DNA of 64,000 nt, taken from the IMG/VR virus record IMGVR_UViG_3300044715_000866. One strand, written 5' to 3'. The stretch comes from a virus. Its lineage: Duplodnaviria > Heunggongvirae > Uroviricota > Caudoviricetes. A program made the position numbers and the translations under genes. Of the stretch, positions 15,036 to 62,539 are shown piece by piece. The number at the start of each line of letters is the position of its first letter. Positions within the stretch are counted from its first letter, which is position 1. Below the pieces are notes generated by a model. The model was not told the DNA's origin, searched no databases, and saw only the letters and a list, made by a program, of their open reading frames with translations.

Positions 15036-15066
15036 AAAAAAGGCAGCCTAAGCTGCCTTTTTTATT
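15036..15066. terminator. Bidirectional rho-independent terminator between convergent genes.
   Basis: The sequence is aaaaa aggcagc ctaa gctgcct ttttt. It has a 7-bp GC-rich stem flanked by an A-run and a T-run. Confidence 0.7.
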
Positions 15067-24781: not shown

Positions 24782-25513
24782 CTAACTTTCCCCGTAGAGT
24801 GCCAAAACCTCTTTTACTGCGTTATGGCGTTCAATATCTTTATGCGTAAAATACGCAACATCAATATGGCTTAATGCCGTTTTATTGTTATCTAATCTAT
24901 CGATAAATTCTAATAAACCGTTATCATGCAAGCGATCAGCTTGTGCTAAATCCCCTGTTACAACCATACGTGAATTTTCCCCTAATCTAGTAAGAGCCAT
25001 CTTCATTTGATTAGGAGTTGTATTTTGAGCTTCATCAAAAATGATATACGCATTTTTGAAAGTTCTCCCTCTCATATAACTTAGTGGACTAATTTCAATA
25101 TCACCCTCAGCTAGAAATTTTGCAATGTCTGTCTGATGGTAATACTCGCCGAATACATCAAAAATAGGTCTTGTCCATGGCGCCATCTTTTCATTTAATG
25201 TGCCTGGTAAGAACCCTAATTCTTCATCTACCGATACTGCTGGTCTAGTTACAATAATCTTATCTATTAACCCTTCCTGAAATAATTTAATCCCATTTTG
25301 AACTGCTAACATCGTTTTCCCTGTACCTGCTGGTCCAACTGCAAACACAATGCTAGTATCTTCATCTTGTAGCATTGCGACATATTCTTTCTGACTTTGG
25401 TTGCGTGGGTTTAATGTTACGCTGTATCTTTTTGGTTTAATCAATTTTGGTTGTTGAAACTCAACTATGTTAACTTGCGATGTGAAACGTTTTTGTACTC
25501 GTTTTTGGGCCAT
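24782..25513 (-). CDS. phoH: PhoH-like ATPase.
   Basis: Walker A GPAGTGKTMLAV and the PhoH core ...IVTRPAVSVDEELGFLPG...VVTGDLAQ. RBS aggag. Confidence 0.85.
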   Translation of the reverse strand: MAQKRVQKRFTSQVNIVEFQQPKLIKPKRYSVTLNPRNQSQKEYVAMLQDEDTSIVFAVGPAGTGKTMLAVQNGIKLFQEGLIDKIIVTRPAVSVDEELGFLPGTLNEKMAPWTRPIFDVFGEYYHQTDIAKFLAEGDIEISPLSYMRGRTFKNAYIIFDEAQNTTPNQMKMALTRLGENSRMVVTGDLAQADRLHDNGLLEFIDRLDNNKTALSHIDVAYFTHKDIERHNAVKEVLALYGES

Positions 25514-29648: not shown

Positions 29649-29677
29649 TTGACAGGTCAGGCATTGTATAGTATAAT
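29649..29677 (+). promoter_or_regulatory. Consensus sigma70-type promoter (TTGACA-N17-TATAAT) upstream of the dnaJ-like gene.
   Basis: The sequence is ttgaca ggtcaggcattgtatag tataat. Confidence 0.65.
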
Positions 29678-29714
29678 TACTATACAAACTGACCTTTTTT
29701 ATGAGAAATTAACC

Positions 29715-30539
29715 ATGACAGACTTTTATTCAAAATTAGGTGTGTCCCAAGACGCATCACAAGACGATATTAAAAAAGCATATCGTTCATTAGCAAACCG
29801 CCATCATCCCGATAAAGGAGGTGACCAAGCTGCATTTAAAGATATTTCTGTAGCATACGATACTCTAAGTGATCCGCAAAAACGTGCAGAGTATGATAAT
29901 CAACAACACGGACATCAGTTTGGGGGTGGACAACATTTCCATTTTGATATGAATGACATATTTGGACAACACGCACATTTTACTAATATGTTTGGAAATG
30001 GATTTAGACAACAACAACGCAACAAAGATTTAAACTTACAAGTACAAGTAACCCTTGTTGAATCTTTTAAAGGTAAACAAGTAGATGCATCATTTACATT
30101 GCCTAGTGGAAAACCGCAAACTGTTTCTATTAATGTACCAGCTGGCATTGATCACGGTGACACTATACGATACCAAGGATTAGGTGACGATTCTATTCCA
30201 AATATTGCTCGTGGAAATCTTAATGTAACAATTCACGTTATTCCGGATTATATATTTAGACGTGAAGGAAATGACGTGTTTGCTACATTAGAAATTAATC
30301 CAATTGAGGCAATGCTTGGCTGTATTAAATCGGTTAAAACTATTACTGGTGAAATAAAAAATGTAAGTATTAGAGCCGGAGTTGAAACTGGCACACACTA
30401 TGCTTCTGGACCGGGATTTACTAATTTACATAGTAAACAAACTGGACAATTTATTTCAGTTATTAAAATTAAAGTTCCTACAATTACTGATCCTGCACTA
30501 ATTGCACAATTACAAGCAATAAACAGTCAATTAAATTGA
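29715..30539 (+). CDS. DnaJ-family co-chaperone with a J-domain and a DnaJ C-terminal substrate-binding domain, but no zinc-finger region.
   Basis: DFYSKLGVSQDASQDDIKKAYRSLANRHHPDKGGD contains the HPD motif. The C-terminal domain is VQVTLVESFKGKQVDASF...VPAGIDHGDTIRYQGLGD. The start is moved to the ATG at 29715; the track's 29649 start is a TTG lying inside the promoter -35 box. Confidence 0.8.
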   Translation: MTDFYSKLGVSQDASQDDIKKAYRSLANRHHPDKGGDQAAFKDISVAYDTLSDPQKRAEYDNQQHGHQFGGGQHFHFDMNDIFGQHAHFTNMFGNGFRQQQRNKDLNLQVQVTLVESFKGKQVDASFTLPSGKPQTVSINVPAGIDHGDTIRYQGLGDDSIPNIARGNLNVTIHVIPDYIFRREGNDVFATLEINPIEAMLGCIKSVKTITGEIKNVSIRAGVETGTHYASGPGFTNLHSKQTGQFISVIKIKVPTITDPALIAQLQAINSQLN

Positions 30540-30595: not shown

Positions 30596-32896
30596 ATGGT
30601 CGAACCAAGCGAAAAACTACAAGCAATTTTTGACAAAGCTATTGCCGCAGCAAAAAACATGCATCATGAGTATGTAACACTTGAGCACGTATTGTTTTCA
30701 ATGCTCATGGAAGATGAAGGATTTACAAGTTCTTTACAGCATTTTGGTGCCGACACTACATTTTTAAAGAATACTGTACTAGATCATTTACAAACAAAAT
30801 GTCAAGAAATTACTACAGTTGACGTAGTAGTTAAACCTAAAAAAACTCAAGCTGTAGAACGCTCTTTAAATAGAGCGTTTACACAAGTGTTGTTTAACGG
30901 TGGCAATCGTATCGAACCAGCTGATTTTTTCTTAGCAATGCTAGGCGAGAAACGGTCATGGGCGTTTTATTATGTTGCACAGGTAAACATCACTAAAGAA
31001 AAGTATGCCGAGTATATACAAAATGTTACATCTGACGATGATGATGCAACAACAAGTTCAGTTAAACCTGGCTCACAAACACACAAAGCATTACAGGCGT
31101 ACACTACTAATTTAAACGAAGAAGTTAAAAATAACAAGATTGACCCAGTTATTGGTCGTGTAGACGAATTAGAACATATTGCGCTTGCGTTAGGACGTCG
31201 TAGTAAAAACAACGTTATTATGGTAGGTGATCCGGGTGTAGGTAAAACTGCAATTGCCGAAGGTCTTGCATATAACATTGTTAACGGTTCGGTTCCTGAA
31301 TTTTTAATAGATTACACTGTTTACAATTTAGATATTGCTGCTATGTTGGCAGGTTCTAAATACAGAGGCGACTTTGAAGAACGATTTAAACAAGTAATTA
31401 AGTCGTTACAGAAACTTGGTAAATGTGTACTATTCATTGACGAGGCCCATATGATTAGTGGTGCAGGTGCATCTGGTAATTCTTCTAATGATTTAGCTAA
31501 TATGATGAAGCCTGCACTTAGTAAAGGTAACATTAAAGTTATTGCAAGTACTACATGGGACGAATACCGTAAACACTTTGAAAAAGATCGTGCGTTAATG
31601 CGTAGATTCCAACGTATTACAGTTGACGAACCTACACAAGAAATGACTTTACAAATTCTTAAAGGTATTAAGAAGTACTACGAAGGTCATCACAAACTTA
31701 AAATTAAGGACGAAGCATTACAAGCGTCAATTAAATTATCTGTAAAATATCAAGCAGATAAAAAATTACCCGATAAAGCTATTGACTTAATTGATTGTGC
31801 TTGCTCACGGTTTAACTTAAAACTTGCAGATCAACGTGTAGTTACAGAAGCTGATATTCAGTTTGAATTAGCTAAAATGGTTAACATGCCAGTTGAACAG
31901 ATCATGCAAACTGAAACTAGTTCGCTAATTACATTGCAAGAAAAACTTGAAGCTGAAGTATTTGGTCAAGATACTGCATTAACTGAAATTGTTGACAAAA
32001 TTATGGTTGCACAAGCAGGATTAAAACCAGAAAACAAACCAATTGGTAGCTTTGTGTTTATGGGACCAACAGGGTGTGGTAAAACTGAAACAGCTAAAGC
32101 ACTTGCTAAACATTTAAATACTAAATTGTTACGTTTTGATATGTCAGAATATCAAGAGAAACACAGTATTAGCAAACTAATTGGCAGTCCTCCAGGTTAT
32201 GTAGGTTTTGAAGACAATGCAGGTTTGTTGATTACACAAATTCAAGAAAATCCAAATGCGGTATTGTTATTTGATGAGATTGAAAAATCACATCCTGATG
32301 TATCTACAGTGTTGTTACAAATGATGGACAACGGCTTTATTACAGGCTCAAATGGTAAACAAGCTGATTGCCGCCATATTGTATTAATTCTAACTACTAA
32401 TGCCGGTGCGCAATCTGCAGAAAAAAATCAAATTGGGTTTGGCTCTCAAGAAAAAGACTATTCAGATACTGATCTTAAGAAGTTTTTATCGCCTGAGTTC
32501 CGCAACAGACTAGATGGTGTTATTACGTTTAATAAGTTAGGAAAAGACACTATGGTTAAAGTTGTAAACAAGTTTATTGACGAAGTGCGTGAACAAGTTA
32601 AAGAAAAAGGCATTAAGATCAAAATTGATAAAGCTGCAACTAATTGGTTGTTAGACAACGGATTTGATGCTAAAATGGGTGCTAGACCATTACATCGCAT
32701 TATTGATAAAGAGATCAAACGTGATCTTGCTAAAATGATGTTGTTTGGTGATCTTAAATTAGGAGGATGGTTAACAGTAACAGTTGCAGATGATAAAATT
32801 GTACTTGTTTCTAAACCTAAAGCACTTAAAGTACCGTTACTTACTACAAAAGAAGTGTTAACATCAGACAACTTGTTTATTGAAGATGCTGATTAA
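30596..32896 (+). CDS. ClpA-like double-AAA+ chaperone/unfoldase (766 aa).
   Basis: Clp_N-like N-terminus. D1 Walker A GDPGVGKTA and D1 Walker B VLFIDEAH. D2 Walker A GPTGCGKTE, D2 Walker B LLFDEIEKSHPD and the sensor GARPLHR. There is no long M-domain, so it is ClpA-type rather than ClpB-type. Confidence 0.9.
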   Translation: MVEPSEKLQAIFDKAIAAAKNMHHEYVTLEHVLFSMLMEDEGFTSSLQHFGADTTFLKNTVLDHLQTKCQEITTVDVVVKPKKTQAVERSLNRAFTQVLFNGGNRIEPADFFLAMLGEKRSWAFYYVAQVNITKEKYAEYIQNVTSDDDDATTSSVKPGSQTHKALQAYTTNLNEEVKNNKIDPVIGRVDELEHIALALGRRSKNNVIMVGDPGVGKTAIAEGLAYNIVNGSVPEFLIDYTVYNLDIAAMLAGSKYRGDFEERFKQVIKSLQKLGKCVLFIDEAHMISGAGASGNSSNDLANMMKPALSKGNIKVIASTTWDEYRKHFEKDRALMRRFQRITVDEPTQEMTLQILKGIKKYYEGHHKLKIKDEALQASIKLSVKYQADKKLPDKAIDLIDCACSRFNLKLADQRVVTEADIQFELAKMVNMPVEQIMQTETSSLITLQEKLEAEVFGQDTALTEIVDKIMVAQAGLKPENKPIGSFVFMGPTGCGKTETAKALAKHLNTKLLRFDMSEYQEKHSISKLIGSPPGYVGFEDNAGLLITQIQENPNAVLLFDEIEKSHPDVSTVLLQMMDNGFITGSNGKQADCRHIVLILTTNAGAQSAEKNQIGFGSQEKDYSDTDLKKFLSPEFRNRLDGVITFNKLGKDTMVKVVNKFIDEVREQVKEKGIKIKIDKAATNWLLDNGFDAKMGARPLHRIIDKEIKRDLAKMMLFGDLKLGGWLTVTVADDKIVLVSKPKALKVPLLTTKEVLTSDNLFIEDAD

Positions 32897-42217: not shown

Positions 42218-42433
42218 ATGGTATTTGTGAGCCACAAGTCACATAAACTGAGATACAATATGGAAGAATTTAAAATCTGTACGGAATGTATTCGTCCGGA
42301 GATATGTTTATCAAGATGTGAATGTAGTATCATTGTTAATAGCGAAGAAGCTGTTGCAAGATTACGTGACGAAGAATCATTCATGTCATGGATTAACGAA
42401 CACGCAACTAATCGCGATAGAGGTGAAGCATGA
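42218..42433 (+). CDS. Small Cys-rich protein. An internal ATG at 42260 is an alternative start.
   Basis: CTECIRPEICLSRCECS. ATGA-coupled to the polymerase gene. Confidence 0.45.
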   Translation: MVFVSHKSHKLRYNMEEFKICTECIRPEICLSRCECSIIVNSEEAVARLRDEESFMSWINEHATNRDRGEA

Positions 42434-45093
42434 GTTATGTAGATGCTTACTTTGATCGTGATAACGATGTTATTAAAATTGTAGAAAGAAATTCAAAAGG
42501 TGAACGGGAATACAAAGATATTGCCGTTAAACACACATTATATTATACAGACCCGAAAGGGAAATATCAATCAATTTACGGAGACCCCGTATCAAAAGTA
42601 ATTTGTAACAATACAAAAGAGTTCCGCAAAGAACTTTCAATACACGGTAATAAAAAGCTGTTTGAAGCAGATATTAATCCAATTTTTAAATGCTTATCAG
42701 ATAACTATCTTAATCACGACGCGCCTAAATTAAATATTGCGTTTTATGATATTGAGGTTGATTTCGATCCAGAACGCGGGTATGCATCACCCGATGATGC
42801 GTTTATGCCTATTACTGCTATTGCAGTGTATTTACAATGGTTAGATACTCTTATTTGTTTAGCAATACCTCCAAAGACATTAACTATGGATCAAGCTAAA
42901 GAACAAATTAGAGATATTCCAAATACTATTCTTTTTAACACAGAAGCAGAGATGTTAGATACATTTTTAACACTGCTTGAAGATGCTGATATTATTAGCG
43001 GCTGGAATAGTGAAGGATTTGATATACCATACACTGTAAATCGTGTTACAAAAGTTCTATCAAAAGATGATACACGCAGATTTTGCTTGTTTAATCAATT
43101 ACCAAAAAGACGTGAATATGAAAAGTACGGCAAAGCTGCAGTAACATACGACTTTGTAGGACGTGTGCATTTAGATAGTTTACAATTATATCAAAAGTAC
43201 ACATATGAAGAAAGACATAGTTTTAGACTTGATGCTATTGCTGAATATGAGTTAGGTGATCGTAAAACACAGTACGAAGGTACGCTTGATCAGTTATACA
43301 ACAATGACTTTAGAACGTTTATTGAGTACAACCGTCAAGATACTATGCTATTACACAGACTTGATACAAAATTAAAGTTTATTGACCTAGCTAATACACT
43401 TGCACACGAGAACACTGTATTACTACAAACTACTATGGGTGCGGTTGCTGTAACAGAACAAGCAATTATTAACGAATCACATCACAGAGGGTTTGTTGTA
43501 CCTAACAGAAAAGGTAAAGCAGAACCAATTCAAGCTGCAGGCGCGTATGTTGCGTATCCTAAAGAAGGAATTCATGACTGGATTGGCTCGCTAGATATTA
43601 ACTCTCTGTATCCAAGTGCCATTAGAGCATTAAATATGGGTCCGGAGACTATTGTAGGACAACTAAGACCAATCGTAACTGACGAATACATAGGCTTACA
43701 ACTAGCTAAAGGTAAATCGTTTGCTTCTGCATGGGAAGGTTTGTTCGGTACACTTGAATATACGTCTGTTATGAATGAAGAAATAGGTACTGATATTACA
43801 ATTGACTGGGAAAATGGCGATACTGATATATTAAGTGCTGCTGAAGTATACAGATTGATATTTGAAAGTAATCAGCCATGGGTTATGTCAGCTAATGGAA
43901 CTATCTTTTCATATGAAACAGAAGGTATTATTCCTGGATTACTAAAGCGATGGTATGCAGAACGTAAGGATATGCAGAAAAAGCTAAAAGAAGCTATTAA
44001 TGCAGGTAATAAGATTGAAGAAGAATACTGGGATAAACGTCAGCTGGTTAAGAAGATTAACCTAAATAGTTTATATGGTGCTATTCTTAATCCTGGATGT
44101 AGGTTCTTTGATAAACGTATTGGGCAATCAACTACGTTAACTGGTAGACAAATTGCTAAACACATGGCAGCTAAAGTAAATGAGATTATAACCGGCGAAT
44201 ACAATCACACAGGTAAGTCTATTATTTACGGTGACACTGACTCTTGTTACTTTTCAGCGTATCCTACACTTAAACGTGAAATAGATAATGGTAGTTTACC
44301 ATGGTCTAAGGAAACTGTTGTTCAATTATATGATCAAATTAGTGATCAAGTTAATGGTACATTTCAACAGTTCATGCTTGATGCATTTCATTGCCCTAAA
44401 TCGCGTGGTGAAGTAATTAAAGCTGGTCGTGAGATTGTTGGTAGTAAGAGCTTATTCATTACTAAAAAACGTTATGCAGTACTAGTATACGATAAGGAAG
44501 GTAAACGTAAGGATACACTTGGTAAAAACGGTGAAATTAAAGCTATGGGCTTAGACTTAAAGCGTAGTGATACACCTGAATTTATTCAAGACTTCTTATC
44601 ACAAGTATTAGAAATGGTATTAGGTGGTGATACTGAACAGCATGTACTAGATTACATCAGTAAGTTTAGGATATCGTTTAAAGCTAGACCAGGTTGGGAA
44701 AAAGGTTCGCCTAAACGCGCTAATAGCATTACGTCTTATTTAGAAAAAGAAGCTAAACAAGGCAAAGTTAATATGCCCGGACATGTTAGAGCAAGTTTAA
44801 ACTGGAATACACTAAAACGTATGTATGATGACAAGTATTCAATGTCTATTACAGACGGTGCAAAGGTAATTGTATGTAAACTTAAACAAAACCCATTAGG
44901 GTTTACAAGTGTTGCGTACCCAGTAGATGAATTACGCTTACCACAATGGTTTAAAAACCTACCATTTGATCATAATGGAATGGAAGATACTATTATTGAT
45001 AACAAACTTGATAACTTGATTGGCATTTTGAACTGGAAGTTAGCTGATACGTCAGATAGAAACACATTTAACAGTTTATTTGAATTTGAATAA
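42430..45093 (+). CDS. 43: Family-B DNA polymerase (T4 gp43-like) with a 3'-5' exonuclease domain.
   Basis: Exo I is FYDIEVD. Motif A is LDINSLYPSAI, motif B is KINLNSLYGAIL and motif C is YGDTDSCYFS. Length is 887 aa. Confidence 0.95.
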   Translation: MSYVDAYFDRDNDVIKIVERNSKGEREYKDIAVKHTLYYTDPKGKYQSIYGDPVSKVICNNTKEFRKELSIHGNKKLFEADINPIFKCLSDNYLNHDAPKLNIAFYDIEVDFDPERGYASPDDAFMPITAIAVYLQWLDTLICLAIPPKTLTMDQAKEQIRDIPNTILFNTEAEMLDTFLTLLEDADIISGWNSEGFDIPYTVNRVTKVLSKDDTRRFCLFNQLPKRREYEKYGKAAVTYDFVGRVHLDSLQLYQKYTYEERHSFRLDAIAEYELGDRKTQYEGTLDQLYNNDFRTFIEYNRQDTMLLHRLDTKLKFIDLANTLAHENTVLLQTTMGAVAVTEQAIINESHHRGFVVPNRKGKAEPIQAAGAYVAYPKEGIHDWIGSLDINSLYPSAIRALNMGPETIVGQLRPIVTDEYIGLQLAKGKSFASAWEGLFGTLEYTSVMNEEIGTDITIDWENGDTDILSAAEVYRLIFESNQPWVMSANGTIFSYETEGIIPGLLKRWYAERKDMQKKLKEAINAGNKIEEEYWDKRQLVKKINLNSLYGAILNPGCRFFDKRIGQSTTLTGRQIAKHMAAKVNEIITGEYNHTGKSIIYGDTDSCYFSAYPTLKREIDNGSLPWSKETVVQLYDQISDQVNGTFQQFMLDAFHCPKSRGEVIKAGREIVGSKSLFITKKRYAVLVYDKEGKRKDTLGKNGEIKAMGLDLKRSDTPEFIQDFLSQVLEMVLGGDTEQHVLDYISKFRISFKARPGWEKGSPKRANSITSYLEKEAKQGKVNMPGHVRASLNWNTLKRMYDDKYSMSITDGAKVIVCKLKQNPLGFTSVAYPVDELRLPQWFKNLPFDHNGMEDTIIDNKLDNLIGILNWKLADTSDRNTFNSLFEFE

Positions 45094-45101
45094 ACTACTT
45101 A

Positions 45102-45130
45102 TTGACAAATTGATACAAATATAATATAAT
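45102..45130 (+). promoter_or_regulatory. Consensus sigma70-type promoter (TTGACA-N17-TATAAT) downstream of the polymerase gene.
   Basis: The sequence is ttgaca aattgatacaaatataa tataat, followed by RBS aggag and the ATG at 45152. Confidence 0.65.
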
Positions 45131-45889: not shown

Positions 45890-46305
45890 TGATAGACATT
45901 AGAAAAGCATTAAAATTATTAGATATCATATATGTAAACGACAACGAGAGCATTAAATCGTCAGTTGATAAACTAACAATGTTAGCGCAATTAGATATGC
46001 CATCTTATGCTATGCCAGGACCGTTTGAACAGTTTTATGTTGATTACGAATACATGAAACAACGTGTGCAAGGACTTGAATCGAGATTAACCACACTTGA
46101 AGATTATAATCGAAACCCATATACAAATTACACTGTTAATTCGCATATAGTTGGCCATGTTACTACAAGTCCGCAGTTTGTAAGTGCATTTAACAGAATT
46201 ACACAATTAGAAACTGAATTACAAGTTACTAAAACGTTACTTAGTAAGTTATTAACCCCAGAACAGGAAGAAGATGAATCGGAACTTAACAGCAACACAG
46301 AATGA
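45889..46305 (+). CDS. Hypothetical coiled-coil protein (138 aa).
   Basis: TAATG-coupled ORF. Confidence 0.5.
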   Translation: MIDIRKALKLLDIIYVNDNESIKSSVDKLTMLAQLDMPSYAMPGPFEQFYVDYEYMKQRVQGLESRLTTLEDYNRNPYTNYTVNSHIVGHVTTSPQFVSAFNRITQLETELQVTKTLLSKLLTPEQEEDESELNSNTE

Positions 46306-48169
46306 TTATGCTGTATTCCTACCAGCAACGTCGGGTTTTTACTCAACGTTTGTCGGAAAACAACGTTACGGCAATTATGTTGAACCTTCACGTATTCCTG
46401 CATCATTTAAAGCAGGCGTAGAAGGTCTTAATTACTTAGAACCAGAAAAAGGTGAATTTTATTACAGATGGTGTTTGTATTCAGCAGGGCATGCAAACTT
46501 AGACTTGACTAAGCCTGACGAAAGCGAAGACATGTTTCGTAATAGAGATAGAAGCACTAGTTGGGTATTAGGTGACTCGGGCGGTTTCCAGATTGGTAAA
46601 GGCGTATGGGAAGGCGAATGGAGAGATCCTAACAGTGCAATAGTACAAACAACCATGGCTGATTGCATTGCTAAAGGTATTGAAACTGTTCCTGTACTTG
46701 ACTCAACAGGAAACCCAGTAGTTAACAAAAAAGGTGTTCCTAAAACTACTAAAATTGATCACGTTAAACTATATCAAGCTCGGTTAGATGCTGCTCAAAA
46801 GAAAAGAGAGCAAGTATTAGCATGGATGGATACGTTAATGGATTACGGAATGGTACTTGATATTCCGGCATGGGTCGAACGAAGTCCTGCAGGTAAACTT
46901 GCAACTGGTATTACAAGTTATGACGAAGCAGTTGATGCTACAATTTATAACAATGAATACTTTATGAAACACCGCAATGGTAACTGTAAATTCTTAAACG
47001 TATTACAAGGTGAAACCCATACACAAGCTGACGATTGGTATAGTAAGATGAAAGACTTTTGTGATCCTGCTATATATCCAGATACACACTTTAACGGGTG
47101 GTCAATGGGTGGTCAAAATATGTGTGATGCCGAACTAGTACTTAAACGTGTAGTAACATTAAAATTTGACAACTTGTTACAAGAAGGCAAACATGATTGG
47201 ATGCATTTCTTAGGAACCAGTAAATTAGAATGGGCATGCTTTTTAACTGATGTACAACGTGCAGTGCGTAAATATGTTAATCCAAAATTTACTATTAGTT
47301 ATGATTGTGCTAGTCCGTTTTTAGCTACTGCAAATGGACAGGTGTATATTACTACTGAATTAGACGATAGATCTAAATGGGTATATCGAATGGTGCCAAG
47401 CGTTGACGATAAAAAATATGCACAGGATTCTAGACTATTTAAAGATGCAGTAATACAAGATGGTATTTTTAGTGTGTTTGATCCAAGTCCATTAATTGAT
47501 CAAGTAGCAATTAAAGACGTGTGTATATACGGTCACGGTGTTCCTAATTGGACAGAAGTTAATAACGATAATGTTGATCATGCTAACCTATTTACAGATC
47601 CAAAATATTTAAATGATCCTAAATACTGGATAACATTAGGCGATGCAAATAAAATTAACAAGATTGGTAAAACTAGTTGGGATAGTTTTAGCTATGCTAT
47701 TTTAATGGGGCATAATGTGTGGAGTCACGTTAATGCTGTACAAAAAGCAAATGAAGCTTACGACAACGGTATAATTCCTCGAATGTTAATAGGCGAAAAA
47801 ACTCAACCGTATGTTGTTAGAGATATTATTGACCGGATTATTGCGTGTGATGATAGAACCGTTGCTATTAAGATGATTGAAGATCTTGAAAAGATATGGA
47901 TGGCTATTCCGGGCACTAGAGGTAACACTGGCAAAAACATAGTTAACAACGAAACTACTACTACTACTAATTATGTAGCCGAATCAATTATTACAGAAAA
48001 AGTTGAAAAAATTAGAAAAGTGTTATTAACAGATCTTACATCACAAGTTAACAACTTATTTGATTTTGATGACAATATTACAGAAGAAGTAGAATCCGAT
48101 GACTATGAGTTTTCTGAAGAAGACGAACTTACCTTATCTAACCTAGAAGATAGCATTAAACATGAATAG
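46274..48169 (+). CDS. dpdA: tRNA-guanine-transglycosylase-like DNA transglycosylase (DpdA-like) with a long acidic C-terminal extension.
   Basis: VLGDSGGFQIGKG matches the TGT catalytic-Asp motif (T/L)DSGGFQ. The length of 631 aa exceeds the ~400 aa typical of DpdA/TGT. The C-terminus is DDYEFSEEDELTLSNLEDS. RBS aggaag. Confidence 0.7.
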   Translation: MNRNLTATQNDYAVFLPATSGFYSTFVGKQRYGNYVEPSRIPASFKAGVEGLNYLEPEKGEFYYRWCLYSAGHANLDLTKPDESEDMFRNRDRSTSWVLGDSGGFQIGKGVWEGEWRDPNSAIVQTTMADCIAKGIETVPVLDSTGNPVVNKKGVPKTTKIDHVKLYQARLDAAQKKREQVLAWMDTLMDYGMVLDIPAWVERSPAGKLATGITSYDEAVDATIYNNEYFMKHRNGNCKFLNVLQGETHTQADDWYSKMKDFCDPAIYPDTHFNGWSMGGQNMCDAELVLKRVVTLKFDNLLQEGKHDWMHFLGTSKLEWACFLTDVQRAVRKYVNPKFTISYDCASPFLATANGQVYITTELDDRSKWVYRMVPSVDDKKYAQDSRLFKDAVIQDGIFSVFDPSPLIDQVAIKDVCIYGHGVPNWTEVNNDNVDHANLFTDPKYLNDPKYWITLGDANKINKIGKTSWDSFSYAILMGHNVWSHVNAVQKANEAYDNGIIPRMLIGEKTQPYVVRDIIDRIIACDDRTVAIKMIEDLEKIWMAIPGTRGNTGKNIVNNETTTTTNYVAESIITEKVEKIRKVLLTDLTSQVNNLFDFDDNITEEVESDDYEFSEEDELTLSNLEDSIKHE

Positions 48170-48686
48170 ACAGTATAATAACATAACTACTAACACTGCT
48201 AAGTTTTTTGTTGGCAACGAAGTAGAACACACACCAGCATATAGTTTAAAAACATTGTTTGTTGTTGGCGCGCAAACTACAGAAGCAATCCATTATCGGT
48301 TAGATGCTGAAGAAGATATTACACATATCTTCTTTGGTGCAAACCATAGTTTTAATCCAAATACACCAGGTGCATGGCTCAATTGGAATAACATTATCGA
48401 GCACTTTTTAAAATTAGGCAAACAGTGTTCATTAGATATTCCATTTACAGTAGTAAACGATTTTAATAATAAAACTAATTTATGTTCATATGCAAATTTT
48501 ATTCCTCAAATTAGAATTCCGGTTGCAAATATTAAAGATTGGAGTTATAATACAATGATAAAATTAGATGACATAGATTTTAACGCAACTAATCCCGGGG
48601 TGTGGACACATAACTTAAAAGCATTGCAAAATGACGATGTGTTTACTAGCTGGACTGACTATAACAACGACAATATAATTAAATGA
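48162..48686 (+). CDS. Hypothetical protein (174 aa).
   Basis: ORF overlapping the dpdA stop. No motif recognised. Confidence 0.5.
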   Translation: MNRQYNNITTNTAKFFVGNEVEHTPAYSLKTLFVVGAQTTEAIHYRLDAEEDITHIFFGANHSFNPNTPGAWLNWNNIIEHFLKLGKQCSLDIPFTVVNDFNNKTNLCSYANFIPQIRIPVANIKDWSYNTMIKLDDIDFNATNPGVWTHNLKALQNDDVFTSWTDYNNDNIIK

Positions 48687-49042
48687 CAGATACACAAATG
48701 ATATGGGTTTCTTTTAAGAAAGAAGGAATTCACCATTACCCTGATGCATTAACTAACCCTAACTTAATAGATGTATCTTTTTTAGGACATCCACATAGAC
48801 ATATATTTCATTTTAAAGTATGGATAGAAGTTACGCATTCTGACAGAGACATTGAGTTTATACAATTTAAACGATGGTTAGAATCATTGTATATTAGTTC
48901 AACATTATCATTAGATAACAAAAGTTGTGAAATGATAAGTAATGATTTATCATTAACAATTAGAAATGAATACCCTAATAGGGCAATTTGGATTGAAGTT
49001 TCTGAAGACGGCGAAAACGGATCATTTATTAAGTATTTGTAA
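48683..49042 (+). CDS. Second, divergent QueD/PTPS-like T-fold protein that lacks the catalytic Cys.
   Basis: VSFKKEGIHHYPD aligns with QueD FTFEAAHRLPH. LGHPHRHIFHFKVWIEV aligns with LHGHNYKVEVTV, but there is no Cys upstream of the H-x-H. Confidence 0.45.
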   Translation: MTDTQMIWVSFKKEGIHHYPDALTNPNLIDVSFLGHPHRHIFHFKVWIEVTHSDRDIEFIQFKRWLESLYISSTLSLDNKSCEMISNDLSLTIRNEYPNRAIWIEVSEDGENGSFIKYL

Positions 49043-49561: not shown

Positions 49562-50659
49562 ATGAAATTAAAACCTACTATTTGGATATTTGCTATTGAA
49601 CCATTAGATACTCGATATACTAAACAATGGATCGAGCATATTCCATCACAACTTAAAGAACACGTTGGTGATTACAACATTGTACAAATTACTGGTGATC
49701 AACAAGACTCAGAAGTAACACCGGGTGCATTTTTAAACTTTATAGATACTAACATTTGGAAAGGATCACAGCTTGTTGGTTTTTTAAAAAACTATAATAA
49801 ATCTTCAACTAATGATCATTTCTTATTTACAGATGCATGGAATCCGGCAATTATAAACTTAAAGTACATTAAAGACTTAATGAGATTAAATTGGACATTT
49901 CACGGGTTGTGGCACGCAGGTAGTTATGATAAACACGACTTTCTAGGTGCTATTGATCACGGGTGGGTTAAACTAGCTGAAAAGAGTTATTATGCAGCAT
50001 TTGATCATAATTACTTTGCAACTGAATTCCACGTGCGTATGTTTATGGAACAATTATTAAACAACGGAATGACTAGTGAAAATCCGTGGTTTGAAGAAGA
50101 TTGGGATGAACGTTACGACGATGGTAAAATTGTACGCACTGGTTGGCCAATGGAATACTTAGCAGACGAACTAGCGCCGTATGCTAATAAAGAGAAACGT
50201 GATTTAATTGTATTTCCACATAGAGTTGCTAGCGAAAAACAAGTTGATATTTTTAAAGCATTAGCTCATCAATTACCACAATACGACTTTGTTGTATGTC
50301 AAGAACAAAAGCTAAGTAAAGATGAATATCACAACCTGTTAAGCGAAGCAAAGATCGTGTTTAGTGCTAACTTACAAGAAACATTAGGCATTAGTTGTTA
50401 TGAAGGTGCGTTACTTGGTGCTATTCCAATGGTTCCTGATAGATTAAGTTATAAAGAAATGTATATGTATCATTTTAAATATCCATCAGAATGGACTGCT
50501 AGTTATGCAGACTACGAATCACACAGTTATGATTTGTGTAACAAAATTATCCATTACATAGAAAACTATAATGATATTGTACCATATGTTAAACAACAAG
50601 CCGATTACTTAGCACTGGAATTTTTTAATGCAGGAGATTTATATGACAAGTTTAAATGA
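49562..50659 (+). CDS. Putative GT-B-fold glycosyltransferase (GT4-like C-terminal domain).
   Basis: LIVFPHRVASEKQ...KIVFSANLQETLGISCYEGALLGAIPMV resembles the GT-B C-terminal E-x7-E sugar-donor-binding region (EGFGLxxLEAMAxGxPVV). Confidence 0.5.
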   Translation: MKLKPTIWIFAIEPLDTRYTKQWIEHIPSQLKEHVGDYNIVQITGDQQDSEVTPGAFLNFIDTNIWKGSQLVGFLKNYNKSSTNDHFLFTDAWNPAIINLKYIKDLMRLNWTFHGLWHAGSYDKHDFLGAIDHGWVKLAEKSYYAAFDHNYFATEFHVRMFMEQLLNNGMTSENPWFEEDWDERYDDGKIVRTGWPMEYLADELAPYANKEKRDLIVFPHRVASEKQVDIFKALAHQLPQYDFVVCQEQKLSKDEYHNLLSEAKIVFSANLQETLGISCYEGALLGAIPMVPDRLSYKEMYMYHFKYPSEWTASYADYESHSYDLCNKIIHYIENYNDIVPYVKQQADYLALEFFNAGDLYDKFK

Positions 50660-51062
50660 TACAATAACAACATCATCTGGGTGTGATACAATTACATTTA
50701 ATATGGATGGAGATCCAACACGTTACAGTATACCAGCTTTTGATACTATTACACTTAGTGACTATGTATCTAGTTCAACTGCTAGCGGAATATACAATGG
50801 AACAATGCATGGTACTGCTCCGTACACAATTAGTAATTCTTCTACTATTGGAATTAATGGGGGGTCATCTTATTACACCGGCACTGGTGGTTATTGGAAT
50901 CAATCATATAACGGTAAACCATTTGAAGATAACTTTCCAGAATGGAATGCATTTAGAGAGTTGTGTGATGAATATCCAGGATTAGAAAGAGCATATCAAA
51001 ACTTAAAAACTTTTTATACTATGTGCCATGCAGATAGTTTATTACCAAAGGACGATAAATGA
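50643..51062 (+). CDS. Hypothetical Ser/Thr/Gly-rich protein.
   Basis: RBS aggag before the ATG at 50643. The track's 50628 start is an in-frame extension. Confidence 0.5.
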   Translation: MTSLNDTITTSSGCDTITFNMDGDPTRYSIPAFDTITLSDYVSSSTASGIYNGTMHGTAPYTISNSSTIGINGGSSYYTGTGGYWNQSYNGKPFEDNFPEWNAFRELCDEYPGLERAYQNLKTFYTMCHADSLLPKDDK

Positions 51063-51589
51063 AAGTAGTAAAATACAGTTGGAAACAATTAGAAGGCGCA
51101 GCATTGGAGATTGCACGTCAAATACAAAAAGATAACTGGAAACCAGATTACATTGTTGGAATTACACGCGGTGGACTTATTCCTGCAAACTTACTTAGTC
51201 AGTATCTTGGAGTTAAGATGTTAACATTACACGTTAGTTTACGTGATCATCCGGATGATAACGAACACAATGCATGGATGGCATGTGATGCATTTGGAAT
51301 TACTGATGACGAACTAGCAAGTACCGGACAAGCTAAAAACATCTTAATTGTTGATGACATAAATGACTCAGGTGCAACCCTTGATTGGATTAAAGAAGAT
51401 TGGAAATCATTGTGTTTACCAAATGACATAAGATGGAAACACGATGTATGGCATAAGAATGTAAGATTTGCTACAATATTTGATAATAGTGCTAGTAATG
51501 CACATGTTGATTATTGTGCAGAAGAATTTGATAACCGAGACGATCCAATTTGGATTGACTTTCCATGGGAAAACTACTGGAAGAAATAA
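51059..51589 (+). CDS. Type-I phosphoribosyltransferase that most resembles xanthine-guanine PRTase (Gpt).
   Basis: [22 protein letters not shown] aligns with Gpt [36 protein letters not shown] is the PRPP-binding loop (Gpt VIDDLVDTGGTA). [15 protein letters not shown] aligns with Gpt TWIEQPWD. It is 176 aa against Gpt's 152 aa. Confidence 0.7.
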   Translation: [176 protein letters not shown]

Positions 51590-51921
51590 TGGAACTACAT
51601 TCAATAGCTAAGAAACACGGTATACGAAGCATAGACGTTGAACAATTTTATGCTGCAGGTGATAACTATTCGTTAGATTGGTCAAGATCAAACCTACCAA
51701 GCGAAAGAGCAAACGTTACACGGTCATTAACTGTTAAAATACACGAGAACGATTTTATAAAGTTAATTGACAAAGCTGAAAAGTGTGAAGACTGGAATAA
51801 AAAATATTATGAAGATATGTATGTTAGAGATTCTAATCCAACTGTAAAAGCAGCATACGAAAAATATCAAATGTTTTTAGAAATAGCAAGATCGGAAGTA
51901 CACAATGACAGACTTAACTAA
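51589..51921 (+). CDS. Hypothetical protein (about 110 aa).
   Basis: TAATG overlap at 51587-51591. Confidence 0.5.
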   Translation: MELHSIAKKHGIRSIDVEQFYAAGDNYSLDWSRSNLPSERANVTRSLTVKIHENDFIKLIDKAEKCEDWNKKYYEDMYVRDSNPTVKAAYEKYQMFLEIARSEVHNDRLN

Positions 51922-52066
51922 AGAAGAACTACAAGAAAAGATTTTACAAGTAAAACGTGATATTTCTAAACATAGCGATTCAAGTAATCCACGTATATTA
52001 TTAGGCCTTCAAGAATATGTAAATTATTTAGAAGACGAATTAAAAACATTGACAAATAAACAGTAG
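51905..52066 (+). CDS. Possible 53-aa coiled-coil micro-protein (MTDLTKEELQEKILQVKRDISKH...).
   Basis: ATG-initiated ORF below the track threshold. Its 3' end runs into the folE promoter. Confidence 0.3.
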   Translation: MTDLTKEELQEKILQVKRDISKHSDSSNPRILLGLQEYVNYLEDELKTLTNKQ

Positions 52067-52077
52067 TGTTGTATAAT
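52049..52077 (+). promoter_or_regulatory. Consensus sigma70-type promoter (TTGACA-N17-TATAAT with a TG-extended -10) upstream of folE.
   Basis: The sequence is ttgaca aataaacagtagtgttg tataat. Confidence 0.65.
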
Positions 52078-52103: not shown

Positions 52104-52775
52104 ATGAGCTTTAATAAAACAAAAACCGATTCAGAATTAGGTTTAGAAATACACAATCATTTAGTAAGTTTAGGAGTAGAAACTCCGGTAACTGAAAAAA
52201 TATTAACATCATCAGAAAAGATTAATATCATTCAGGACAAGTTTTATGATATTATGGTAACTTTAGGTTTAGACTTAACAGATGACAGTTTAGCAGACAC
52301 TCCTAAACGTGTTGCAAAAATGTTTGTCAACGAAATATTTTGGGGTCTTGATTATGATGCGTTTCCCAAATGTACTACTATTCAAAATAAGATGGGATAC
52401 AATGAAATGTTAATTGAACGCAACATTAACGTACAAAGTAACTGCGAACATCACTTTGTAGTAATTGACGGGTTTGCAACAGTAGGTTACATTCCAAAAG
52501 ATGTTGTACTTGGATTAAGCAAAATTAATCGCGTAGTTGAATACTTTGCAAAACGTCCACAAGTACAAGAAAGATTAACAGAACAAGTATTCCATGCACT
52601 GGAATACATTTTAGATACTGATAATATTGCAGTAGTAATTGATGCAAAACACTATTGTGTTGCTGCAAGAGGTGTAGAAGATACAGGTAGCACTACTATT
52701 ACTAGTAAGTTAGGTGGTGCATTTAAAAACGATCCAACTACTCGTGCAGAATTTATGAGTATTGTAAACAAATAA
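52104..52775 (+). CDS. folE: GTP cyclohydrolase I.
   Basis: CEHHFVVIDG and QVQERLTEQV are FolE signature blocks. Length is 223 aa. The gene has its own consensus promoter. Confidence 0.85.
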   Translation: MSFNKTKTDSELGLEIHNHLVSLGVETPVTEKILTSSEKINIIQDKFYDIMVTLGLDLTDDSLADTPKRVAKMFVNEIFWGLDYDAFPKCTTIQNKMGYNEMLIERNINVQSNCEHHFVVIDGFATVGYIPKDVVLGLSKINRVVEYFAKRPQVQERLTEQVFHALEYILDTDNIAVVIDAKHYCVAARGVEDTGSTTITSKLGGAFKNDPTTRAEFMSIVNK

Positions 52776-52783
52776 GGAGAGTT

Positions 52784-53236
52784 ATGAAAGACTTAAAACC
52801 ACAAATTCCAGCAGTAGGCATTATGAAAACAAGTGACTGGGGTAACAGTAAAATGTATAAAATTCAATGCACATGCGGCAACGACGATGACAATATTGAG
52901 TTTATGATTGAGGCAGATGATCTTAATATGATTACTGTAACTACATTTACAACACAAAAAACTGCGTACTGGGATAGACCATTTGATGTTTCGAACACAT
53001 ACAAAATTAAAAATTCGTTTTTAAGCAGTATTGCATACGAAACATTGAGCTTTCTTAACGGGTTTCAGCATCGTATTAAAATGACATGGAATTTGTGGTT
53101 TAATGGTTATCTTAAATATCAGCAATCAACTATAATGACTGAACAACAGACATTAAACTATGCAGAAACATTGAAGGCTGCAGTTAATGATTGCAAAGAT
53201 TTTCGTAAACAAGATAGGGCAACTAATCTTAAATGA
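52784..53236 (+). CDS. Hypothetical protein (150 aa).
   Basis: RBS aaggag. No clear motif. Confidence 0.5.
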   Translation: MKDLKPQIPAVGIMKTSDWGNSKMYKIQCTCGNDDDNIEFMIEADDLNMITVTTFTTQKTAYWDRPFDVSNTYKIKNSFLSSIAYETLSFLNGFQHRIKMTWNLWFNGYLKYQQSTIMTEQQTLNYAETLKAAVNDCKDFRKQDRATNLK

Positions 53237-53282: not shown

Positions 53283-53933
53283 ATGAACTACTTAATGATT
53301 AAAAAATGTATGAATACCGGACTTAAATATCTGTGTAAAACAAGCGGTAACAAAAATCCTTATTTATATACCGGATCCGGAGTTAGATGGTTGCACCATA
53401 TTAAGAAACACAAATCACATATTATAACTTGTATAATAGGTGAATATAATACTAAAGAAGAATTGCAAGAAGCAGGTCTGCATTATTCTAAATTATATAA
53501 TGTAGTAAAAGATTACACCTGGGCAAATTTAACAGAAGAAAAAGGCGACGGTGGATTAATAGGTAACGGACAATTAGGTAAAACTTGGAAAATTAAAGAT
53601 ACATCTAATATGAATAAACCAAAAACTAAAACAGATGCTTGGTATGAAGGTAAAAAAAAGACTGCTGGTAAAAACAACTATCAATTTAAAGGTCAAATAA
53701 AGACCCCATGGGGTCTTTTTGATACAGGTTTAGATGCTATTACAGAAGGCAAACGATTAAGAGAATTAGGAAATACAGAAGTAATTACAGATGGCAATAC
53801 TTTAAGAAAGTATTTACATTCGTTAGATACTGTGTTAAACTTACAAGGCAGGCGAACTCCAAAAACTTGGAGAGGTAAAACGCCAAGAGAAATAGGTTTT
53901 GAAATAATAAAGGATACAGATGTCAAAAATTAA
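53283..53933 (+). CDS. Seg-like GIY-YIG homing-endonuclease candidate.
   Basis: LKYLCKTSGNKNPYLYTGSGVRWLHHIKKH aligns with I-TevI GIYQIKNTLNNKVYVGSAKDFEKRWKRH (GIY...YIG...R..H). It is followed by a Lys-rich, probably DNA-binding tail. A TATAAATA box lies at 53258-53265. Confidence 0.5.
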   Translation: MNYLMIKKCMNTGLKYLCKTSGNKNPYLYTGSGVRWLHHIKKHKSHIITCIIGEYNTKEELQEAGLHYSKLYNVVKDYTWANLTEEKGDGGLIGNGQLGKTWKIKDTSNMNKPKTKTDAWYEGKKKTAGKNNYQFKGQIKTPWGLFDTGLDAITEGKRLRELGNTEVITDGNTLRKYLHSLDTVLNLQGRRTPKTWRGKTPREIGFEIIKDTDVKN

Positions 53934-54762
53934 GATATCAGAAATATTTTACTCTCTACAAGGAGAGGGTAGATTTATGGGAGTGCCAAGTGTGTTCCTT
54001 AGAACGTTTGGGTGCAATTTTTCTTGTAGAGGGTTTGGAATGCCAGCAGGTGAACTAAGTGTACAAGCAGATGCGATTGCTAATAATGGTATACAATATC
54101 ATTCATATGATGAACTACCATTAGTAACTACTGGCTGTGACAGTTATGCAAGTTGGCATCCAAAGTTTAAACATCTAAGTCCAGCGATGTCAATAGACGA
54201 AGTTGCAGCTAAAATGATTGAGCTGTTACCTAACGGTGAATGGGGTGGAGTACACTTAGTAATTACAGGCGGCGAACCATTATTACCAGGTTGGCAACAA
54301 ATATATCCAGAATTACTAAGACATCCATTATTAGCAGACTTAAAAAACATTACATTCGAAACTAATGGTACACAAGAACTGTTACAAGATTTTGAAAACT
54401 ACTTATACATGGAAAGACGGTATCAAACTACGTTTTCAGTTAGTCCTAAACTAAGTGTAAGTGGCGAGCCTAGAGAAAAGGCAATACGTCCTGAAATAGT
54501 AACCGAGTATCAGTTTTCAGGGCATAGTTCATTTTTAAAATTTGTAGTAGCATCTGAAGAAGACGTAGAAGAAGCGCGTGAAGTAATGCAGCTATATAAA
54601 GACAACGGATTTAGAGGTGATATTTACTTAATGCCAGTAGGCGGTGTAACTGATGTATACAACCTTAATAATCGACGAGTAGCAGAACTTGCATTAACGC
54701 ACGGATTGAGATACAGTGATAGACTTCACCTCCCTCTCTTCGGTAACAACTGGGGAACATAA
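53920..54762 (+). CDS. queE: 7-carboxy-7-deazaguanine synthase (radical-SAM QueE) with a long insertion inside the cluster-binding Cys motif.
   Basis: ISEIFYSLQGEGRFMGVPSVFLRTFGCNFSC aligns with QueE EIFxTIQGEGxxxGxPxxFVRxxGC. The third Cys (TGCDSY) lies about 38 residues downstream. Confidence 0.8.
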   Translation: MSKIKISEIFYSLQGEGRFMGVPSVFLRTFGCNFSCRGFGMPAGELSVQADAIANNGIQYHSYDELPLVTTGCDSYASWHPKFKHLSPAMSIDEVAAKMIELLPNGEWGGVHLVITGGEPLLPGWQQIYPELLRHPLLADLKNITFETNGTQELLQDFENYLYMERRYQTTFSVSPKLSVSGEPREKAIRPEIVTEYQFSGHSSFLKFVVASEEDVEEAREVMQLYKDNGFRGDIYLMPVGGVTDVYNLNNRRVAELALTHGLRYSDRLHLPLFGNNWGT

Positions 54763-61483: not shown

Positions 61484-61775
61484 AGAAGTAGTTGCACACT
61501 GGCCAGAAGTATTTGAAGAGGTAACACTTAATGTGTTACCTCTTCTTTATTTGCATTCAGTAGTTATTAATTTTAAAGATAATAAGTCTTGGGAAATAAA
61601 ATTAACAACTAAAATAAAAAAAGATGGATGGAATAGCTTTCAACAGAGTTTATCAGAATTGTTAAATTCGTATGAAGAACAGATAGACGATGTAGATTTT
61701 AAACTGGATGCAGCAAAAGTAAAAAAAGATGTAGAAAAACTAACCAATAAATTTTTAAAGAAACAAAAATTATGA
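61455..61775 (+). CDS. Hypothetical ~106-aa protein; the TTG start is doubtful.
   Basis: ORF overlapping the upstream gene by 29 nt with no ATG near the 5' end. Confidence 0.35.
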   Translation: MLKQTKPLPKEVVAHWPEVFEEVTLNVLPLLYLHSVVINFKDNKSWEIKLTTKIKKDGWNSFQQSLSELLNSYEEQIDDVDFKLDAAKVKKDVEKLTNKFLKKQKL

Positions 61776-62539
61776 ACATTAAATTAGTATCATATTCTCA
61801 ACCAACTGAAGAATTTGCTGAATTAGGAATTACTGATGCACAAGAACTTATTGCGTTTTGCGCTCGGGTAAGTAATCCGTCAAATCAGTTTAATACAGAA
61901 ACTTCAGAAAAACTTATCAACTACTTAATTAAACATAAACATTGGTCACCGCTTGAAATGGTTAATGTGTGTTTAGAAATTAATACCACCCGCGATATTG
62001 CACGTCAATTACTACGTCACGCTTCATTTAGATTCCAAGAGTTTAGTCAACGCTATGCAGATCCAACAAACGATCTGTCTTTTGAAATACGCGATGCTAG
62101 ATTTCAAGATCCTAAAAATCGTCAAAATTCAATTACAATTAATACTGCAGAAGAAGAGGCAATTAATGATGAATGGCATCTAAGACAAGAAGCTCATATT
62201 AATTCAGCAAAAGCACAATATGAATGGGCAATTAGCAAAGGTATTGCTAAAGAACAAGCTCGTGTCGTTCTTCCAGAAGGCAATACTAAAAGTCGTGTGT
62301 ATGTTAACGGGACGTTGCGCTCATGGATTCACTACATACAAGTGCGCAGTAACGTGGATACACAGCTTGAACACAAACAAGTTGCTGTAGCATGTGCGCA
62401 AGCAATTAGCGCAGTATTTCCAATGGTAAATGACTTTGTTTATAAGGAAGAACCAGTTTTAGAACCTATTAAAGAAGAAATTGTTGAACCTAAAAAACTT
62501 AAATGGCATCAACACTTTTTTAATTTTTACAAACACTAA
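61772..62539 (+). CDS. thyX: ThyX-family flavin-dependent thymidylate-synthase homologue with a degenerate RHR motif.
   Basis: HKHWSPLEM aligns with the ThyX HxSxxEH block. LRHASFRFQEFSQRY fits the RHRx7SxR signature spacing, but the third Arg is Ala. Length is 255 aa. Confidence 0.6.
   Translation: MNIKLVSYSQPTEEFAELGITDAQELIAFCARVSNPSNQFNTETSEKLINYLIKHKHWSPLEMVNVCLEINTTRDIARQLLRHASFRFQEFSQRYADPTNDLSFEIRDARFQDPKNRQNSITINTAEEEAINDEWHLRQEAHINSAKAQYEWAISKGIAKEQARVVLPEGNTKSRVYVNGTLRSWIHYIQVRSNVDTQLEHKQVAVACAQAISAVFPMVNDFVYKEEPVLEPIKEEIVEPKKLKWHQHFFNFYKH

Follow-up and report, generated by a model that had tools for sequence, protein, structure and literature searches.

A purine phosphoribosyltransferase gene as a recurrent accessory of phage 7-deazaguanine DNA-modification clusters

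Phage 7-deazaguanine DNA modification is an active topic in anti-restriction biology. In the published scheme, FolE, QueD and QueE act first, QueC, DpdL or other enzymes follow, and DpdA comes last; a phosphoribosyltransferase (PRT) takes no part. In the system of Cellulophaga phage phiST, 7-carboxy-7-deazaguanine (CDG) presumably loses its carboxyl group to give 7-deazaguanine, and the 2023 paper on phiST and Flavobacterium phage immuto, which concluded that insertion is post-replicative, never mentions a PRT. A purine-PRT homologue is encoded together with FolE, QueD and QueE in the Streptomyces clusters for tubercidin (TubE) and toyocamycin (ToyH), which contain no transglycosylase and yield free nucleoside antibiotics. 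Here we describe a purine PRT gene at positions 51059 to 51589 (+ strand) of a 64,000-nucleotide stretch (the window) of the IMG/VR virus record IMGVR_UViG_3300044715_000866 (Caudoviricetes). The gene lies in a 7-deazaguanine cluster, and we conclude that PRT is a recurrent yet dispensable accessory of such DNA-modification clusters in phages.

The PRT open reading frame (ORF) runs from ATG to TAA and comprises 176 amino acids (aa). It matched PF00156 in Pfam (E = 1.1e-16; 61 bits, above the gathering threshold of 26.3) and PHROG 8995, 'phosphoribosyl transferase' (E = 4.5e-17). The best matches in a PDB sequence search were the Pyrococcus purine PRT, Sulfolobus GpT-2 and the xanthine-guanine PRTs (XGPRTs) of E. 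coli and Yersinia. An AlphaFold2 (AF2) model built on 35 homologues reached a pLDDT of 89.3 and a pTM of 0.88, and its top Foldseek matches in the PDB were all XGPRTs or hypoxanthine-guanine-xanthine PRTs (HGXPRTs; E = 1e-11 to 1e-8, probability 1.0, TM 0.6 to 0.77). The fold is the same as that of E. coli Gpt (PDB 1A95-97), Sulfolobus GpT-2 (4Z1O/4ZFN) and the Pyrococcus enzyme (1VDM), with which the protein also has the motifs RGG, DDxxD[ST]GxT and WI.(F/Q)PW(E/D) in common. Thus, the ORF encodes a type-I PRT of the XGPRT/archaeal HGXPRT class, and the protein itself belongs to a known enzyme family. The original prediction, made from the DNA letters of the window, had seen a type-I PRT with clear similarity to XGPRT. 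The PRT assignment and both motifs that it quoted, the RGG block and the phosphoribosyl pyrophosphate (PRPP) loop, were borne out, but the word 'clear' was not: the likeness to Gpt must be qualified, because identity to E. coli Gpt was only about 25% and the best NCBIfam model, the XPRT equivalog NF006613, scored 60.3 bits, below its cutoff of 138. By these measures, the protein is no orthologous Gpt. In contrast to Gpt and the archaeal HGXPRTs, to which it is 22 to 27% identical, it contains two insertions with invariant Trp, Met and Asp residues, has Asn143 in place of Lys115 of E. coli XGPRT, and is encoded in a phage DNA-modification cluster.

The window derives from a jumbo phage, and our negative results for QueC, ribonucleotide reductase (RNR) and kinase genes refer to this 64-kb part of the genome. 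Its family B DNA polymerase gene polB (42430 to 45093) encodes a protein 42 to 49% identical to the polymerases of Phosso, Atu_ph07 and RaK2-like phages. On the 3' side of polB, the genes are ordered DpdA-like, 174-aa protein, DpdL, GT-B-like, PRT, FolE, 150-aa protein and QueE. This agrees with the original prediction, which had placed the PRT gene inside a deazaguanine cluster and, more precisely, between a glycosyltransferase (GT)-like gene (49562 to 50659, + strand) and folE (52104 to 52775, + strand). FolE, a GTP cyclohydrolase I, was assigned by Pfam (E = 2e-60) and by an NCBIfam equivalog (316 bits; cutoff, 202). The QueE-like radical-SAM enzyme (CDG synthase; 53920 to 54762, + strand) matched PHROG 2076 (E = 1e-58) and scored below the NCBIfam QueE cutoffs. 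The 119-aa ORF at 48683 to 49042 (+ strand) encodes a DpdL homologue, that is, a QueD paralogue and proposed CDG decarboxylase: it shares 32% identity with phiST DpdL (E = 5e-16), has tblastn matches in ACP17, PA5oct and phiST, and its LGHPHRHIF fits the DpdL signature LxxxHRHxF defined in PMC10516641. On the strength of the phiST match and the signature, its assignment as QueD was rejected. The true QueD, a 6-carboxytetrahydropterin synthase, is encoded about 35 kb upstream of the cluster (15065 to 15598, - strand; custom hidden Markov model [HMM], E = 6e-15; Pfam PTPS, E = 1.5e-28). QueC was not found among the scanned ORFs of the window.

The assignment of the transglycosylase relied on structure. 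The 631-aa product of the gene at 46274 to 48169 (+ strand) had no match in Pfam, NCBIfam, PHROG or PDB sequence searches, and its likeness to known phage DpdA was marginal in hmmsearch and hhalign (hhalign P of about 0.01). It contains the motif GDSGGFQ, and although its AF2 model was mediocre (pLDDT 66), the top 50 Foldseek matches in the PDB were all tRNA-guanine transglycosylases (TGTs; E = 3e-5, TM 0.3 to 0.45). In PA5oct and in Vibrio phage 2.275.O, homologues have deazaguanine genes as neighbors. We therefore treat it as a putative DpdA-family transglycosylase, on the level of the fold and the DSGGFQ motif.

Among described systems, the predicted gene set of the window matches the phiST dDG system (Hutinet 2023): both have FolE, QueD and QueE without QueC (in the window), a DpdL with the same signature, a TGT-superfamily gene and a homologous PRT (CGPG_00045 in phiST). 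The two differ in that phiST DpdA3 has 259 aa and its likeness to the 631-aa protein is barely detectable. In addition, phiST has no GT-B-like gene, and its PRT gene is located 18 kb away, beside a kinase gene and an RNR gene. Two kinase-like genes were noticed in phiST, a P-loop one (AAA_18; CGPG_00066, L012:10382-10861) between DpdA3 and DpdL, and a deoxynucleoside monophosphate (dNMP)-kinase-like one (CGPG_00044, L002:9422-10030) beside PRT; neither is discussed as a pathway component in the 2023 paper. The closest cultured phage with the layout of the window is the Pseudomonas jumbo phage PA5oct, whose DNA was experimentally shown to contain modified guanine (G). It has polB, a 245-aa protein, TGT-like, GT-like, DpdL, PRT, QueE and 5'-3' exonuclease genes in the same order (TGT-like-GT-DpdL-x-x-PRT-QueE). 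FolE was not detected in the fetched region of PA5oct, and its PRT differs from that of the window in being only 26% identical and lacking the flexible loop. A nucleotide search of the phage collection revealed no near-identical match to the cluster of the window.

The pairing of PRT with deazaguanine genes recurred well beyond the window. More than 5000 metagenomic proteins matched the PRT, the best with 54 to 90% identity and on contigs syntenic with the window. When 80 IMG/VR loci of the window clade were inspected, QueE was present within the available flanks of 71 and FolE within those of 57; these counts come from related loci and do not represent independent events. A second IMG/VR scan detected QueE in about 70 of 76 loci. 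Furthermore, six or more phage lineages, with five operon layouts, proved to have homologous PRTs in their deazaguanine clusters, and the PRTs of unrelated isolates were only 24 to 31% identical to that of the window. The genes are arranged as QueE-PRT-x-QueD-FolE-...-DpdL in Synechococcus phage BUCT-ZZ01, as QueC-QueD-QueE ... RNR-dNMP kinase-FolE-PRT in Brevundimonas phage MaInes and as QueD-x-QueE-x-x-PRT-FolE-x-MazG-x-DpdA-x-DpdN-kinase-QueF in immuto, while lambda-like siphophages from the second scan have FolE-QueD-PRT-QueE with overlapping gene ends. In phiST, PRT adjoins the dNMP-kinase-like gene and RNR. A homologous PRT is also encoded by the Campylobacter Firehammervirus phages including CP220; the radical-SAM gene beside the CP220 PRT is not recognized by the QueE HMM and was not called QueE. 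In jumbo phages, T4-like cyanophages and the phages of Cellulophaga, Flavobacterium, Brevundimonas and Campylobacter, PRT is a standalone protein. Every annotated phage isolate with PRT has deazaguanine genes within the fetched region or close to it.

NP1-like Queuovirinae have a FolE with a short N-terminal PRT domain, about 112 aa long, that contains RGG, DDLIDSGST and WIVFPWE. The 'GTP cyclohydrolase' of Pseudomonas phage NP1 (L174:6899-7792) has 297 aa, of which Pfam recognizes only the FolE part, residues 118 to 296. The fusion was also found in PaMx25, JG012/JG054, Quinobequin, Xanthomonas phage DoCa3, Stenotrophomonas phage ytsc and the Vibrio phages VpKK5 and 033B, and fusion relatives of the NP1-like phages span Xanthomonas, Stenotrophomonas, Vibrio and Variovorax. 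It is unannotated in the fetched records, and the iggy paper makes no mention of it. A full-text literature search on deazaguanine together with phosphoribosyltransferase or PRPP, either broad or narrowed to phage and DpdA, returned nothing relevant, its other matches concerning nicotinamide PRTs. In line with the original prediction, PRT is missing from every published phage deazaguanine scheme in the literature searched. The membership of PRT in phage deazaguanine clusters, including the fusion to FolE, thus appears to be undescribed.

We considered whether PRT is a generic purine-salvage gene that supplies more guanosine monophosphate (GMP) and GTP from degraded host nucleic acid, without any specific coupling to DpdA. 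Salvage is the default activity of the PRT family, the nearest relatives of the PRT are ordinary cellular PRTs, and a few viral PRT loci have no cluster genes in the available flanks (L037, L070, L151, L158, L162, L173 and L256). These loci are uninformative, since they have short flanks or a relocated PRT gene: in L037, PRT has moved within a 216-kb contig, 20 kb of which were examined, and L256 is an unverified fecal scaffold. Two short 'Escherichia/Salmonella phage' records with matches to the PRT (L257, which is OR845500.1, and OR850930.1) were discarded as host gpt contamination, being 98% identical to E. coli Gpt. As a control, we analyzed 80 cellular relatives of the PRT (29 to 38% identity, tblastn) from Sphingomonadales, marine Flavobacteriaceae, Actinomarina and SAR324, and in 0 of the 80 was FolE, QueD, QueE, QueC or DpdL located within 8 kb. 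The linkage is therefore phage specific. According to the original prediction, a plain salvage gene would be conserved equally in relatives that lack deazaguanine genes; the phage homologues, however, stood almost always beside FolE or QueE and the cellular ones never. The frequency of QueE in the flanks in both IMG/VR scans, the deazaguanine genes of all annotated PRT-bearing isolates and the fusion to FolE, which points to a specific link, likewise speak against generic salvage, which we consider unlikely. We conclude that the pairing of PRT and deazaguanine genes is non-random.

PRT is not required in all such clusters. In at least nine DpdL-positive isolate groups, no PRT match was obtained with four tblastn queries (ACP17, Phosso, RHph_I1_18, Xanthomonas phages BUDD/X1, Aeromonas phage Ahp1, Burkholderia phage BCSR5, Vibrio phages Bakedbeans/D479 and Chryseobacterium phage MA9V-3), and none was detected when the 30 kb surrounding the ACP17 cluster were scanned with an HMM. 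Neither is it specific to DpdL clusters: this idea was rejected, because immuto (QueC/QueF/DpdN) and MaInes (QueC) have PRT and many DpdL phages lack it. The gene that did accompany PRT in every cluster with enough flank was of the DpdA type (the window, phiST, immuto and the IMG/VR loci L098-L109, L169 and L170). Together with the QueE counts given above, this result bears out the co-occurrence with dpdA and queE for which the original prediction had proposed to look. It also argues that PRT would work alongside base exchange and not instead of it.

Our preferred reading, to which we assign a probability of roughly 0.4, is that PRT is catalytically competent and acts on the guanine displaced by DpdA base exchange, forming GMP that would feed FolE. 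In this scheme, FolE, QueD, QueE and DpdL would make 7-deazaguanine, which the DpdA-like transglycosylase would swap for G in the DNA with the release of one free guanine per swap. PRT would convert the freed guanine and PRPP to GMP and would so take away the guanine that competes for re-insertion. Two kinase reactions would then turn the GMP into GTP for use by FolE, closing a guanine cycle. To the observed PRT fold and motifs, cluster membership and recurrence, this reading adds three parts that we infer: that guanine is the substrate, that PRT is coupled to DpdA and that the cycle is closed. It would explain the DpdA-type gene in every checkable PRT cluster, the optional nature of PRT, the Asp kept in the active site, the choice of FolE as the fusion partner and the diversity of the end products, which among PRT-bearing clusters include dDG, fdPreQ1, dADG and preQ0-type bases. 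FolE is the GTP-consuming entry enzyme, and its fusion to PRT in NP1-like Queuovirinae is in line with recycling. Complete replacement of G is described in the literature for phiST (dDG), immuto (fdPreQ1) and Firehammervirus (dADG). All three phages known for 100% replacement (phiST, immuto and CP220) encode PRT, and they are the ones in which the largest guanine release would be expected. The original prediction had mentioned a salvage step as an alternative to a nucleotide-level route; specified as the recycling of DpdA-displaced guanine, this alternative fits the data at least as well.

The nucleotide-level route itself, beside base exchange or in its place, had been the first proposal of the original prediction. 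It has a precedent in TubE, an experimentally CDG-specific PRT of tubercidin biosynthesis that is encoded with FolE, QueD and QueE, without QueC, and precedes decarboxylation on the nucleotide. A TubE/ToyH-like PRT would use CDG, or 7-deazaguanine after the action of DpdL, and PRPP to form a ribonucleotide; once phosphorylated and reduced to its deoxy counterpart, this would be built into DNA by the phage polymerase, a pre-replicative route by which G would be fully replaced. By cluster content, not sequence, the window resembles the tub cluster, as QueC is absent from the ORFs of the window and a decarboxylation step follows; the decarboxylase is of the UbiD type in the TubE/ToyH systems and a T-fold DpdL in the window. 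Sulfolobus HGXPRT, the best structural match of the PRT, was also used by the authors of TubE in their alignment. This route would explain the complete replacement in the three phages, the kinase, RNR and MazG genes near PRT (dNMP-kinase-like gene and RNR in phiST, dNMP kinase and RNR in MaInes, MazG and kinase in immuto) and the finding that DpdA3 and DpdL alone yielded no dDG in E. coli. Furthermore, a modified-dGTP route was proposed in general terms for Campylobacter phages in a 2019 paper, and the conserved insertions specific to the window clade would also be in line with this route.

The comparative data, however, do not favor such a route. TubE/ToyH-type clusters as a rule lack a nucleic-acid transglycosylase (bioRxiv 10.64898/2026.04.15.718813), whereas the window has the TGT-fold gene at 46274 to 48169 and modified DNA as its predicted product, and a DpdA-like gene is always kept beside PRT. 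DpdA would then face a competitor for its free base, PRT is missing from many DpdL phages, and the substrate would need to vary by lineage (CDG or 7-deazaguanine, preQ0, preQ1). In addition, the Asp facing N7 is invariant even though protonation of C7 is impossible, PRT is fused to FolE and not to a late enzyme, and RNR, kinase and dGTPase genes were not found in the 64-kb window. Taken together, we consider the TubE-like route somewhat less likely than guanine recycling but a serious contender.

Guanine recycling has its own difficulties. Hosts usually have their own Gpt or Hpt, the well-studied partial-replacement phages 9g and CAjan were absent from the tblastn matches to the PRT, and the two conserved insertions of the window clade seem too elaborate for the mere binding of guanine. 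The O6-contacting Lys of E. coli XGPRT is replaced by Asn in the PRT of the window. Since GMP is two kinase steps away from the substrate of FolE, the fusion is no proof of channeling. The failed reconstitution of dDG synthesis with phiST DpdA3 and DpdL and the ADG nucleoside seen in CP220-infected cells both fit the TubE-like route better. On balance, we slightly favor guanine recycling over that route.

The residues of the active site were compared in an alignment of 35 window-clade sequences. RGG, the ribose pair D99-D100, D103, G105, T107, W165, P169 and E171 were invariant, as were TRGG and the DDxNDxGxT PRPP loop. D103 we take to be the N7-facing Asp of 6-oxopurine PRTs, and in E. coli XGPRT, Lys115 is presumably the O6 contact and Trp134 the stacking Trp. 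The stacking Trp is kept within WI.FPWE, so that the residues expected of a 6-oxopurine PRT (RGG, the DD pair, D103, G105/T107 and the Trp) appear intact, which favors guanine recycling. The position of Lys115 is occupied by Asn143, with Asn invariant in the window clade and in the cellular relatives; it remains Lys in the PRTs of phiST, MaInes and immuto. An Arg (R62) that replaces the flexible-loop Tyr of XGPRT was dropped as a candidate carboxylate ligand, because cellular relatives without Que linkage also have Lys or Arg. The two insertions, at about residues 64 to 90 and 117 to 133 and of about 15 to 25 residues each, are specific to the window clade and without counterpart in the cellular relatives. 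The first, with invariant N71, W73, M74, D77 and A78, lies in an extended loop that is a helix in the AF2 model; this loop is shortened or deleted in other phage PRT lineages. The second contains invariant C119, P121, W126 and W131.

The flexible catalytic loop is missing from the short PRT forms (immuto, L169, L116 and the N-terminal domain of NP1). These forms, the fusion to FolE and the presence of 5vog, a PRT-fold protein with bound ppGpp, among the structural matches of the PRT would suit a regulatory protein that binds guanine, GMP, PRPP or ppGpp and tunes FolE or DpdA without turnover. Against this, the window clade keeps all catalytic motifs invariant and the long loop strongly conserved, and we regard a purely ligand-sensing role as highly improbable.

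Window-clade PRTs scored higher against a cellular subfamily (100 to 119 bits; 34 to 40% identity) than against other phage PRTs (65 to 77 bits) or E. coli Gpt (35 to 50 bits). The phage PRT was therefore likely recruited from cellular salvage enzymes, possibly more than once, and its closeness to that subfamily suggests that a normal salvage enzyme was taken up, in line with guanine recycling. The closest cellular relatives (L176-L255) come from Sphingomonadales, marine Flavobacteriaceae, Actinomarina and SAR324 and have a DDIND PRPP loop and Asn at the position of XGPRT Lys115. The substrate specificity of this subfamily appears uncharacterized.

PRT is thus a widespread, overlooked partner of phage deazaguanine clusters, which would add a step to the pathway under either of the two leading models. 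It bears on the questions of how complete replacement arises and why the reconstitution with DpdA3 and DpdL failed, and it would be of practical use as a marker gene and as the part that heterologous reconstitution has lacked. If PRT were TubE-like, with preQ0 or preQ1 as the substrate in other lineages, a pre-replicative deaza-dGTP route would account for the 100% replacement in phiST, immuto and CP220 and for the failed reconstitution, and the current view of phage 7-deazaguanine insertion as invariably post-replicative would be overturned.

The remaining genes of the cluster were analyzed as well. The GT-B/GT4-like gene upstream of PRT encodes an EX7E motif (ETLGISCYE) and had a weak profile match to WlaC (E = 0.04). 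In the window clade, as in PA5oct, ACP17, BUCT-ZZ01 and the IMG/VR loci L098-L107, it is kept beside DpdL and DpdA-type genes, and in phages that carry it the final base may be other than plain 7-deazaguanine. Between this gene and folE, PRT is accompanied by small ORFs of 144 aa upstream and of 118 and 53 aa downstream. The stop codon of the 144-aa ORF (50628 to 51062, + strand), which is kept in close relatives, overlaps the ATG of PRT (ATGA), and the poorly conserved 118-aa ORF (51565 to 51921, + strand) overlaps the 3' end of PRT. The 174-aa protein encoded between the DpdA-like gene and DpdL (48162 to 48686, + strand) is conserved and syntenic in relatives and had no family match in Pfam, PHROG or NCBIfam; the 150-aa protein encoded between FolE and QueE (52784 to 53236, + strand) is also conserved in relatives. 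A 216-aa ORF (53283 to 53933, + strand) between the 150-aa gene and QueE has no family match, is missing in the otherwise syntenic loci L007 and L008, and looks like a mobile insertion. In the clade member L011 (9360-10950), PRT is flanked by genes for a 2-oxoglutarate-Fe(II) oxygenase and a HIT-family protein (nucleotide hydrolase/transferase), and a second oxygenase gene follows QueE. By pattern match only, perfect sigma-70 consensus sequences (12/12) were detected in the intergenic regions after polB (45102 to 45130, + strand) and before folE (52049 to 52077, + strand). These predicted promoters could give two units, one from the DpdA-like gene to PRT, including DpdL, and one with FolE and QueE.

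Elsewhere in the window, a gene for a NodU/CmcH-type carbamoyltransferase (22670 to 24310, + strand) overlaps a dCMP/cytidine deaminase gene (24307 to 24738, + strand), and the two may form a second module for the modification of nucleotides or DNA. GroES-like, DnaJ-like and ClpB-like chaperones are encoded on the + strand at 20152 to 20535, 29649 to 30539 and 30596 to 32896, and PhoH and ThyX at 24782 to 25513 (- strand) and 61772 to 62539. Finally, a single 3835-aa ORF (2641 to 14148, - strand), which probably encodes a giant fiber or structural protein, is followed by a gene at 1956 to 2585 whose product has an endosialidase-chaperone (Peptidase_S74) domain.

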